Assembly: GCF_009937765.1 (NCBI RefSeq)
Contig: NZ_CP047089.1
Location: forward strand, 516,272-556,271
From: Bacillus pumilus
GTDB lineage: Bacteria > Bacillota > Bacilli > Bacillales > Bacillaceae
DNA length: 40,000 nt
Direction of reading: 5' to 3'
Part shown: positions 4,497-6,146 of the stretch, piece by piece
Position numbering within the stretch: the first letter of the stretch is position 1
How the letters are laid out: the number at the start of each line of letters is the position of its first letter
Translations under genes and position numbers: made by a program
Notes under the pieces: model-generated
What the model was told of the DNA's origin: nothing
Database searches by the model: none
Seen by the model: only the letters and a program-made list of their open reading frames with translations

Positions 4497-6146
4497 TTAA
4501 TTACTGATTTTGGTAATGGTAAATCTTAATTGATCTGTTGTAATTGTTTGCCCACTATTATTGATTAGCCTGTACGTCGTTCCTGCGGGTACGACGCCTG
4601 TATAACCTATAGCCGATACTTGTTCACCTGTAGAAGTTCCGTTGACTCTACCATTTGCAGTACCTGGGGTAGCCGGACCACCATTAGTTGAAACACCTAT
4701 ACTAATTGGGCCTGCTTGCCCAGCAGTTGCAGTAACTTGTGCAGATATATAATAATTACCACTTTGTTGTACAGTAAAAGTATCTGGAGCAGTAAAAGTC
4801 ACGTTGTCAAGAAACTGACTTCCAGCTAATGAGAAAGGAGCACCGTTAGCAACTGTTTGTGTAACCTCTGAGCTAGTGGAACCAATAGCTGTTGAAAGTG
4901 CTCCAGTCGCGCCTGTTGGACCTGTGGCTCCGGTTGCTCCCGTTGCGCCGGTTGCTCCTGTGGCTCCGGTTGCTCCCGTTGCGCCTGTTGCTCCTGTGGC
5001 TCCGGTTGCTCCTGTGGCTCCAGTGGCGCCTGTATCTCCTGTTGCTCCTGTGGCTCCCGTGACTCCGGTTGCTCCCGTTGGACCCGTATCTCCTGTGGCT
5101 CCGGTTGCTCCAGTGGCGCCTGTATCTCCTGTTGCTCCTGTGGCTCCCGTGACTCCGGTTGCGCCTGTATCTCCAGTTGCGCCGGTTGCTCCGGTGACTC
5201 CCGTGACTCCTGTCGCTCCTGTGACTCCTGTCGCTCCGGTTGCGCCTGTATCTCCAATTGCGCCGGTGGCTCCGGTTGCGCCTGTATCTCCAGTTGCGCC
5301 GGTTGCTCCTGTTCCTGTTGCTCCGGTTGCACCCGCACCCGCTATCAATGTATAATCTGGTGATGTTCCTGGCGTGCCTGTTGGAGGCGCCGTATTCACT
5401 AGATATGTGCTTCCATTAGACGTCACCGCTCGACCTACTGGATAACCTGCTGCTGCTGCTGGATCAAACGCTACAATTCCTGTTAAACCTACACCTGTCG
5501 CTCCTGTTGGACCTGTTGGTCCGCTTGAACCAGTCGCTCCACTTGAACCGGTGGCTCCGGTTGCGCCCGCACCCGCTATCAACGTGTAATCTGGTGACGT
5601 GCCCGGCGTGCCTGTTGGAGACGCCGTATTCACGATATACGTACTACCATTTGACGTCACCACTTGACCTACTCGATAACCAGGTGCTGTTGTTGGATCA
5701 AATGGTACAATTCCTGTTAAACCTACACCTGTCGCTCCTGTTGCACCCGCACCCGCTATCAACGTGTAATCTGCTGATGTTCCTGGGGTTCCTGTTGGAG
5801 ACGCCGTATTCACTAGATATGTGCTACCATTGGACGTCACCACTTGACCTACTCGATAACCTGCTGCTGCTGCTGGATCAAACGCTACAATTCCTGTTAA
5901 ACCTACACCTGTCGCTCCCGTTGCGCCTGCTGGGCCTGCCGCACCTGCTGGACCCGCTGGACCTGCTGGACCTCTCCTGCCTGGTCGACCTTGAATAACA
6001 CACACACAAGGATCCTTTCCACAACATGGATTTTTCCTTACTCTCTTACAGCTATCACACTCCCAACCGTAATCTTCATGCGAGTCATACCAACTTCCTC
6101 TTTTATTAGATGGACATGATTTTCCACAATGTCTACATCTTTTCAT
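4497..6146 (-). CDS. Collagen-like (GXT-repeat) protein with a Cys-rich N-terminus, three CBM5/12-like repeats and a BclA/C1q-like C-terminal globular domain
   Basis: 549 aa with a strong SD (GAGGTGA). The N-terminus is CxxC...CxxC...[23 protein letters not shown] is followed by 3 x about 60 aa of [11 protein letters not shown]...[33 protein letters not shown] GATGxTG tract of about 140 aa comes next. The C-terminal roughly 135 aa resembles BclA C-terminal (TNF/C1q-like) domains. Confidence 0.8.
4880..5340. repeat. Tract of about 460 bp with 9-nt periodicity, encoding the GXT collagen-like repeats
   Basis: Near-identical GGTGC.AC.GG.GCAAC-type units (seen on the plus strand as gctccggttgctcccgttgcgcc...). 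It produces spurious long ORFs in other frames and on the other strand. Confidence 0.9.
5332..5925. repeat. Three long direct repeats (about 180-234 bp spacing) inside the collagen-like gene
   Basis: Repeat starts cccgcacccgctatcaa occur at about 5332, 5566 and 5746. Each encodes one CBM-like module. Confidence 0.85.

Follow-up and report, generated by a model that had tools for sequence, protein, structure and literature searches.

Which role a collagen-like protein might play at the very end of a prophage is the question raised by the locus described here, the 40,000 nucleotides of Bacillus pumilus contig NZ_CP047089.1 between positions 516,272 and 556,271 (this whole stretch is called the window below, and coordinates refer to it unless stated otherwise). 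The gene in question is an open reading frame (ORF) of the minus strand, 4497..6146, which starts with ATG and encodes 549 amino acids (aa); NCBI assembly GCA_045370975.1 (contig JBIQDR010000006.1) contains an annotated protein identical to it. It belongs to a PBSX/XkdV-type tailed prophage of roughly 40 kb or more and lies behind the lysis genes. The best reading is that of a phage-borne spore-surface fibre of the BclA family, and our confidence in it is evenly balanced. Three other explanations are weighed against it: a component of the virion, a matrix protein freed by lysis, and a passenger without function.

The translation bears out the layout proposed in a preliminary description made from the sequence alone, namely a Cys-rich head, a collagen stretch, three repeats, a stalk and a C-terminal domain:

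4497..6146, minus strand: complete gene of the collagen-like protein, 549 aa plus stop (ORF list; Pfam)
5991..6146, minus strand: Cys-rich head, aa 1-52, CxxC-x22-CxxC and then a CC/CxC cluster before the first Gly-X-Y (translation)
5892..5990, minus strand: collagen segment 1, aa 53-85, 11 Gly-X-Y triplets (translation)
5754..5891, minus strand: module 1 resembling carbohydrate-binding modules (CBM) of families 5 and 12, aa 86-131 (Pfam, PDB profile, AlphaFold2, Foldseek)
5712..5753, minus strand: collagen segment 2, aa 132-145 (translation)
5574..5711, minus strand: CBM5/12-like module 2, aa 146-191 (best Pfam CBM_5_12 stretch at aa 157-185)
5478..5573, minus strand: collagen segment 3, aa 192-223 (translation)
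5340..5477, minus strand: CBM5/12-like module 3, aa 224-269 (90% identical to module 1)
4896..5339, minus strand: main Thr-rich collagen stalk, aa 270-417, 148 aa (translation, Tandem Repeats Finder, Pfam Collagen)
4500..4895, minus strand: C-terminal BclA-C / C1q-TNF-like domain, aa 418-549, 132 aa (Pfam, NCBIfam, AlphaFold2, Foldseek)

The protein is a bacterial collagen-like protein, as its Gly-X-Y repeats are long enough for a triple helix: 70 triplets are present in the whole protein, the longest run comprises 45 of them, and Pfam Collagen (PF01391) scores 77.6 bits against a cut-off of 27.2 (5.9e-22; best stretch aa 358-415). The main stalk is built from about 48 triplets, most of which follow GATG(x)TG, with a single irregularity of two residues; if extended, it would measure about 42 nm. 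Threonine occupies the Y position in 52 of the 70 triplets, which would allow O-glycosylation without indicating it. The three modules of 46 aa are 88-90% identical to one another (88% between modules 2 and 1) and are separated by short Gly-X-Y runs; at the DNA level, Tandem Repeats Finder detects module repeats of 180/234 nt (88% matches) along with collagen repeats of 9/18/27 nt. The flanks had been described as AT-rich, and their GC content is indeed only 28-34%, compared with 51-64% for the repetitive portion of the gene. Other long ORFs at 4826-5338 (minus strand), 4876-5355 (plus strand) and 5507-5998 (plus strand) were rejected as frame shadows of the collagen repeat with PVA- or QE-rich translations.

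The suspected relationship of the repeats to CBM5/12 is supported by sequence and by structure prediction. Pfam CBM_5_12 matches the protein with 29.4 bits, above the curated cut-off of 26.2. A profile built from 32 modules of the window protein and its homologues has its best PDB match in the CBM12 chitin-binding domain of Bacillus circulans chitinase A1 (1ed7, E=1.4e-3), followed by CBMs of Vibrio chitin deacetylases and an Agrobacterium phage tail fibre. The AlphaFold2 model computed from the alignment of the same 32 modules reaches a predicted local distance difference test (pLDDT) of 95.3, and the top folds found by Foldseek are the CBM5 of Serratia chitinase B and the chitin-binding domain of Streptomyces griseus chitinase C (query-normalized template modelling score, TMq, 0.75-0.77). 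For the isolated domain the target-normalized score (TMt) is 0.70; given a length of only 49 residues, the Foldseek E-values are understandably weak. The sequence alignment to 1ed7 covers no more than the first half of the module (YxxGQxVxxNGxxY), and the second half of the module lacks tryptophan, whereas the second half of the CBM5/12 domain is the part that we take to carry the exposed chitin-binding Trp residues. As modelled, the CBM5/12 fold is regarded as established; binding of chitin or another sugar is only putative.

For the C-terminal domain, the guess of a BclA-like head related to C1q is likewise supported, chiefly by its fold. The domain is not seen by Pfam in the scan of the whole protein; scanned alone, it matches BclA_C (PF18573) with E=8e-6 at 26.2 bits, below the cut-off of 38, and NCBIfam GXX_rpt_CTERM with 33 bits. 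The AlphaFold2 model from a seven-sequence alignment (moderate pLDDT of 70.8, predicted template modelling score 0.68) is a C1q/TNF jelly roll, and its best Foldseek matches in the PDB are ExsFA/BxpB (TMq 0.74-0.82), BclA (0.64-0.69) and the F-BclA tip domain (0.71). The domain has only six relatives (53-70% identity), all of them fragments at contig ends: four come under the names B. pumilus or B. altitudinis, another is labelled Achromobacter, and the last is assigned to a Bacillota metagenome-assembled genome. One of those from B. altitudinis is located in the chromosomal pdxK...gerQ region.

The head, polar and basic, contains nine cysteines (positions 4, 7, 11, 30, 33, 41, 42, 47 and 49), arranged as CxxC at 4/7, Cys11, CxxC at 30/33 and a Cys-rich stretch at 39-50; the CC motif of Cys41-Cys42 lies 11 residues ahead of the first Gly-X-Y. 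The two CxxC pairs could bind zinc, instead of or besides forming disulfides. No Pfam, NCBIfam or PHROG family matches the head. A word search returned two relatives, and an exhaustive HMMER scan of 1.84 billion representative proteins returned eight matches, of which about six appear real; each is a fragment with the same order of head, collagen and module as here. Judged by these searches, the Cys-rich head is rare. The 'collagen-like repeat preface domain' (an NCBI name given to protein P0127) was considered and rejected, because the model NF033172 fits a long N-terminal domain of Paenibacillus and not this head.

Inspection of the whole protein sequence revealed no signal peptide, no hydrophobic N-terminus and no LPXTG motif. 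An exosporium leader was absent according to a pattern search, and no leader model was found among the NCBIfam matches. The absence of all three signals (signal peptide, LPXTG, leader) points to assembly in the cytoplasm, and hence to a place on spores or on virions. Membership of the Scl1/Scl2 and Lcl cell-wall adhesins was rejected, since their NCBIfam matches (58-65 bits against cut-offs of 325-500) are driven by collagen.

Relatives of the whole protein are numerous. The search yielded 6,877 proteins at E <= 0.001, a number to which the collagen repeats contribute much. Of the 120 matches listed, nearly all carry a precomputed CBM_5_12 assignment, and most are named 'BclA C-terminal domain-containing protein' and show the Pfam string CBM_5_12 + Collagen + A_ENA + BclA_C; their sources are mainly B. 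velezensis, B. amyloliquefaciens and B. atrophaeus. Collagen with interleaved CBM5/12 modules and BclA_C is found in well over a hundred proteins, also from Priestia, Paenibacillus and Shouchella. The preliminary description had considered the combination of collagen stalk, internal CBM-like modules and Cys-rich anchor unusual; this holds only for the addition of this particular head, as collagen, CBM5/12 and BclA_C are commonly combined in the databases. The nearest relatives occur in non-phage settings of a spore type, namely in B. altitudinis (pdxK...gerQ), in Priestia (P0004, beside a gene for a small acid-soluble spore protein, SASP) and in B. velezensis (P0092, with the spore-appendage domain A_ENA).

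Comparison with known systems places the protein close to several kinds of spore fibre, and identical to none of them. BclA and BclB of the exosporium nap in the B. cereus group (1wck, 3tyj) share the overall plan of an N-terminal attachment region, a Gly-X-Thr stalk and a C1q/TNF-like C-terminus; like the window protein they have no export signal, and the folds agree with TM scores of about 0.64-0.69. The window protein differs in having a Cys-rich head in place of the leader for ExsFA/BxpB, a stalk broken by three tiers of CBM5/12 modules, a BclA_C match below the cut-off, a location in a prophage and a host group that is not known to carry a BclA nap.

The head has a parallel in proteins of endospore appendages (ENA). 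L-BclA, the tip fibrillum of L-type appendages, has a CC motif and no exosporium leader, and its disulfide coupling has been proposed (PMC11362473); AGE80398.1, a Cys-rich collagen-like protein with a CC motif, has been proposed as a ruffle of S-ENA (PMC12357932). Both share with the window protein the collagen stalk, the C1q head, the N-terminal CC motif and the absence of a leader (PMC11362473, PMC12357932), and in these features, read from its sequence, the window protein would qualify as a member of the L-BclA type. However, no ena (DUF3992), exsL or anchor gene was found among the called genes within 10 kb on either side, so the genetic linkage typical of L-BclA is not seen over that range; moreover, L-BclA has no CBM modules, and the likeness of the heads is at the level of motifs only. 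The ena3 cluster is reported to be absent from B. subtilis and other saprophytic bacilli (PMC11362473).

The middle part of the protein is matched by a different class. Proteins combining A-ENA, collagen and C1q have been described as 'A-BclA' and proposed to form the tips of alpha-type endospore appendages (PMC13111695, which makes no mention of CBM modules). Proteins of this type in our search (P0007-P0120, e.g., RBAM13010) have the same middle, with three interleaved modules that are 47-69% identical per module, a Gly-X-Thr stalk and a BclA_C-type head. They differ in carrying an N-terminal A_ENA domain (PF26595) of about 100 aa and a canonical BclA_C, and in being chromosomal, beside genes for a GT2-TPR glycosyltransferase and an A_ENA subunit; the window protein has no Pfam match to A_ENA and no such neighbours. 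In B. velezensis, P0092 bears the A_ENA domain at its N-terminus and is encoded on the chromosome beside a GT2-TPR glycosyltransferase gene and a second A_ENA gene, of 181 aa (locus L082, 8001-12062). RBAM13010 was considered as a studied collagen-like protein of strain FZB42 and rejected as such, as the ClpA-D proteins are products of other genes, RBAM_007740-007770 (PMC4319854). P0004 from Priestia endophytica, encoded between a SASP gene and a GT2-TPR glycosyltransferase gene (locus L170, 7555-11407), likewise begins with a Cys-rich N-terminus that leads straight into the collagen, with interleaved CBM5/12 modules, stalk and BclA_C; it differs in having six modules, a canonical BclA_C (141 bits), a chromosomal location and a head that is not recognizably homologous. 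No experimental study of collagen with interleaved CBM5/12 modules was found in the literature searched.

The position of the gene in inserted DNA follows from comparison with the yugO locus, which was fetched from one genome per related species. Nine species of the B. pumilus group share 78-91% DNA identity with positions 1-3901 of the window; in none of the nine is there a prophage or a collagen gene within 10 kb of yugO, and YugO is intact in all nine (e.g., an ORF of 328 aa in B. safensis, locus L010).

3138..3932, plus strand: truncated yugO, K+ channel gene, 264 aa (Pfam Ion_trans_2 + TrkA_N)
3901..3902: host/insert junction inside yugO, where DNA homology to the nine species stops at 3901 (alignment)

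Homology to yugO ends at about codon 254 of 328, and the ORF closes after 10 foreign codons with loss of the end of the TrkA/RCK domain; to judge from this truncation, lysogeny probably alters or inactivates YugO. The break at 3901/3902 implies an insertion within yugO, not at its end as had been assumed earlier, and all DNA to the right of 3902 is inserted. Upstream of the collagen gene and on the same strand, the element carries tail and baseplate genes, XkdV-type fibre genes (tail module, 8153-10060), XkdX, two holins (one of them BhlA) and a lysin:

6583..7404, minus strand: endolysin, Amidase_2 + PG_binding_1, last gene of the lysis cassette (Pfam)
7460-7723: Holin_SPP1 holin (Pfam)

Farther away follow terminases, three DNA methylases, YopX, a ParB-like gene and a SUKH immunity gene. 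The three methyltransferase genes of the early region (31836-32864, 37792-38778 and 38799-40000, minus strand) include two of the C5-cytosine and one of the N6/N4 type; that at 38799-40000 runs out of the window and measures 452 aa on a Logan contig. The SUKH-1 (SMI1/KNR4) immunity-type protein is encoded at 35000-35488 and the ParB-N-like protein at 32873-33391 (both on the minus strand), with YopX at 37419-37763.

Behind the collagen gene, the prophage ends in a block that recurs in related elements, preceded by the remnant of another gene:

4084..4242, minus strand: phr remnant, 52 aa, TTG start (DNA identity to locus L108, peptide alignment)
4013..4075, minus strand: element end block, bidirectional terminator AAAACAGACC..GGTCTGTTTT (4050-4075) and then ATGGGGACGGATTGGGGACGAATTAGGGACGAAC repeats (terminator scan; recurrence)

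Two B. pumilus assemblies, L086 and L087, have the same block at a distance of about 370-620 bp behind collagen-like genes, and in L108 it follows rap-phr. Its shared presence beside collagen-like genes in the window, L086 and L087 shows that such genes recur at the end of this family of elements, at different integration sites. In L086 and L087 the block is followed by a tRNA-like 3' fragment, GGTCGCTGGTTCGAGCCCAGTCGGAATCA, and not by yugO, which suggests that these sister elements integrate at a tRNA gene, the window copy having entered yugO. The fragment lies about 100 bp past the block (L086, approximately 1040-1090; L087, approximately 1330-1400), and ARAGORN calls no gene there; a tRNA scan found none in the window, L085, L086 or L087. 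Within the block, the motif ATGGGGACGGATTGGGGACGAA is conserved (window 4013-4046, minus strand; L086 919-940; L087 1209-1230; L108 8804-8825), situated just past the last terminator of the element and about 110-130 bp from the junction, and it is followed by a third copy of GGGACGAAC in the window only. The ATGGGGACGGATTGGGGACGAA repeats may be arm-type binding sites of a recombinase. The 3.5 kb of L087 (1-3488, B. pumilus) contain, in order, the 3' end of one collagen-like gene, the end block, debris of IS3/IS-type transposases and the 5' end, with a Cys-rich head, of another collagen-like gene, a layout that indicates tandem copies or a rearranged locus.

The slot between lysin and end block is variable. 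In 80 IMG/VR prophage loci whose lysin is 50-93% identical to that of the window, DNA similarity stops at the lysin stop codon, and no part of the collagen gene was found downstream of the lysin in any of the 80. In L108 the lysin is followed by a Rap gene (RapH_N/TPR) and a Phr gene of 53 aa (7476-8766 of that locus), and then by the same terminator and GGGGACG-repeat block; rap-phr cassettes of Bacillus prophages thus share slot and end block with the collagen gene, their function being unrelated. Positions 4025-4212 of the window are 86.6% identical to L108, the homology starting at about 4212, so the 52-aa ORF at 4084-4242 is a phr remnant whose first ten codons have been replaced: the 3' two-thirds of phr are kept, while rap and the start of phr have given way to the collagen-like gene. 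Other relatives (L092, L093, L102 and L110) have KAP/STAND nucleoside triphosphatases (NTPases), a ParA-like ATPase operon or S8 subtilases in this place, which may be defence cargo. PBP180, the sole phage record with DNA similarity, ends at the lysin and was set aside as uninformative on the slot.

Transcription signals set the gene apart from the lysis cassette:

6147..6216, minus strand: compact upstream region common to the window and L087 (alignment, motif scan)
6347..6366, minus strand: terminator-like hairpin with T-run between lysin and collagen genes (terminator scan)
6525..6570, minus strand: hairpin with T6 directly after the lysin stop (seen by eye)

The second hairpin escaped the scan owing to its long loop. 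Of the terminators that the preliminary description had attributed to the gene, these two upstream hairpins are present; no canonical terminator follows the stop codon directly, the next one lying beyond the small ORF, at 4050-4075. The earlier suggestion of a moron position has fared better. The gene and the prophage are absent at yugO in the nine related species, and other cargo fills the slot in related prophages; located inside the element and outside its conserved modules, in a transcription unit of its own and variably present, the gene is prophage cargo.

A ribosome-binding site (RBS; GAGGTGAT, 6150-6157) stops 3 nt short of the ATG. Conservation with L087, which provides the only further gene start sequenced for this type of head, extends over no more than about 70 bp ahead of the ATG. 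This stretch includes the RBS and a CATA-N3-TG element (6163-6171), about 20 nt from the ATG, that resembles the -10 region of sigma-K/sigma-E promoters and is also conserved in L087. This block is compatible with a mother-cell promoter, although far from proof of one. In a scan for sigma-70 promoters the sites were no more numerous than in shuffled sequence, and Rfam returned for the flanks a single chance snoRNA match below threshold.

According to the reading as a spore-surface fibre, expression would start from the compact promoter of the gene during sporulation, in the mother cell, and the protein would assemble in the cytoplasm. Three chains would be aligned by their C1q/TNF-like heads, a nucleation of the trimer assumed by analogy, because of what is established for BclA, and would zip into a Thr-rich triple helix with a total length of about 65 nm. 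The helix would be interrupted at three levels, where each chain loops out a 46-aa module of CBM5/12 fold, resulting in nine modules per fibre. The Cys-rich head would represent the attachment end. Its CC/CxC cluster might staple the trimer and/or link it by disulfides to a Cys-rich outer spore layer (a crust of CotY/CotZ type) or an appendage, similar to the coupling proposed for the CC-motif protein L-BclA (PMC11362473). Spores of the lysogen would thereby gain a new adhesive or aggregative surface fibre.

Several observations weigh against this reading. No glycosyltransferase, Ena or coat gene is located beside the collagen gene in the window, and the crusts of the B. subtilis group have been reported to be without collagen-like glycoproteins (PMC10502511). 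The expression and localization of the fibre are predictions, and the promoter of the window gene does not have the AC at -35 that is present in L087, so that its match to sigma-K/sigma-E is weak and partial. The single clean insertion is deduced from one junction only. Binding of chitin or sugar has to stay putative because the second half of the module does not align to 1ed7. Furthermore, the three copies at prophage ends diverge from one another by about 40% in the C-terminal domain, a divergence that fits receptor-binding proteins as well as adhesins. Phage fibres, finally, provide parallels for both kinds of domain: a search of viral structures finds hundreds of C1q/BclA-like heads, including collagen-bearing phage proteins and the tail-fibre receptor-binding protein of Bacillus phage Sam46, and CBM5/12-like modules occur in the tail fibres of Agrobacterium phages 7-7-1 and Milano and of cyanophage A-1(L).

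These parallels lead to the rival that survives best, in which the protein is a side fibre, whisker or decoration of the virion, its C1q-like head and CBM-like modules binding wall glycans and its Cys-rich head docking on capsid or baseplate. We consider it unlikely on balance. Assembly in the cytoplasm suits virions as well as spores, the gene is oriented like the late genes, its C-terminal head diverges between copies, and, since C1q-like heads on collagen stalks are common in phage fibres, the fold does not decide between spore and virion. Collagen-like proteins are also known from prophages of E. coli O157:H7, where they are described as trimeric fibres with globular ends that are related to tail fibres (PMC3368898). 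The window gene differs from these and from the collagen tail fibres of phages by its position outside the tail module, in the cargo slot, and by a sequence without relatives in the collections of phages. Many PHROG 'tail fiber' families do match the whole protein, but their best stretches all fall within aa 183-536, mostly in collagen or repeat sequence, and the C-terminal domain alone matches no PHROG. Neither the module nor the C-terminal domain has a tblastn match in the 50,697 phage records of INPHARED, where the sole match of the head (E=0.8) is to a cyanophage ThyA gene, and a search of 2.9 million IMG/VR contigs brought up no relative of the C-terminal domain. The gene follows the lysis cassette behind two terminator-like hairpins, outside a tail module that has its own XkdV-type fibres; it is present in none of the 80 prophages with related lysin, and its slot is elsewhere filled by rap-phr and defence-like cargo. 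Hence the marks of a phage tail fibre, a place in the tail module and phage homologues, are lacking.

Quite unlikely, in our estimation, is a matrix or adhesion protein that would be freed by the lysis of some cells, either on phage induction or by lysis of the mother cell, and would bind cells, spores or polysaccharide so as to promote aggregation or biofilm formation. A protein without signal peptide or anchor whose gene adjoins the lysis genes would suit such a release, nine CBM-fold modules per trimer would suit such binding, and effects on biofilm and on adhesion to roots have been described for collagen-like proteins of B. amyloliquefaciens (PMC4319854). The latter proteins, ClpA-D of FZB42 (RBAM_007740-007770), are however different from the CBM-bearing homologue RBAM13010; close relatives offer no precedent, and the Cys-rich head suggests covalent attachment, not a free fibre.

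Least probable, and very unlikely, is a silent or decaying passenger, a chromosomal B. pumilus-group paralogue captured by illegitimate recombination in place of rap: a recombination scar inside phr (at about 4212), two such genes around insertion sequence (IS) debris in L087 and the existence of chromosomal paralogues would agree with it, but the 549-aa frame is intact over about 1.1 kb of slippage-prone repeats, the RBS is good, the upstream block is conserved, and in three genomes (window, L086 and L087) the same end of the element adjoins collagen-like genes.

The kind of protein described here is already known, in that BclA-like collagen fibres and ENA tip fibrillae have been characterized and the architecture with interleaved CBMs is widespread. 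New are the rare Cys-rich head, the presence of a fibre gene of spore type among prophage cargo, in a slot occupied by rap-phr elsewhere, and the host group, for whose crust a lack of collagen glycoproteins is reported (PMC10502511). A more far-reaching proposal, tentative and rather doubtful, is that a temperate phage remodels the spore coat of its host, a fibre made in the mother cell and linked to the crust by disulfides of its Cys-rich head providing a relative of the B. subtilis group, usually considered to have no collagen nap, with a glycan-binding, BclA-like one; as the slot alternates between this gene and the rap-phr modules of sporulation and quorum sensing, the phage lineage would tune dormancy and spore adhesion from one locus.

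If the protein proves to be a fibre of the virion, it would be an ordinary variation on phage collagen fibres. In either case, collagen with tiers of CBM5/12 fold, widespread in Bacillaceae, represents an attractive scaffold for fibre engineering. If the protein is attached to spores, it would exemplify a second way of fixing collagen fibres to them, independent of a leader and based on cysteines. It would then also constitute a lysogenic conversion of the spore surface, with consequences for adhesion, aggregation and persistence on surfaces, and these properties are relevant in the B. pumilus/safensis group, whose members are contaminants of clean rooms, food plants and spacecraft.

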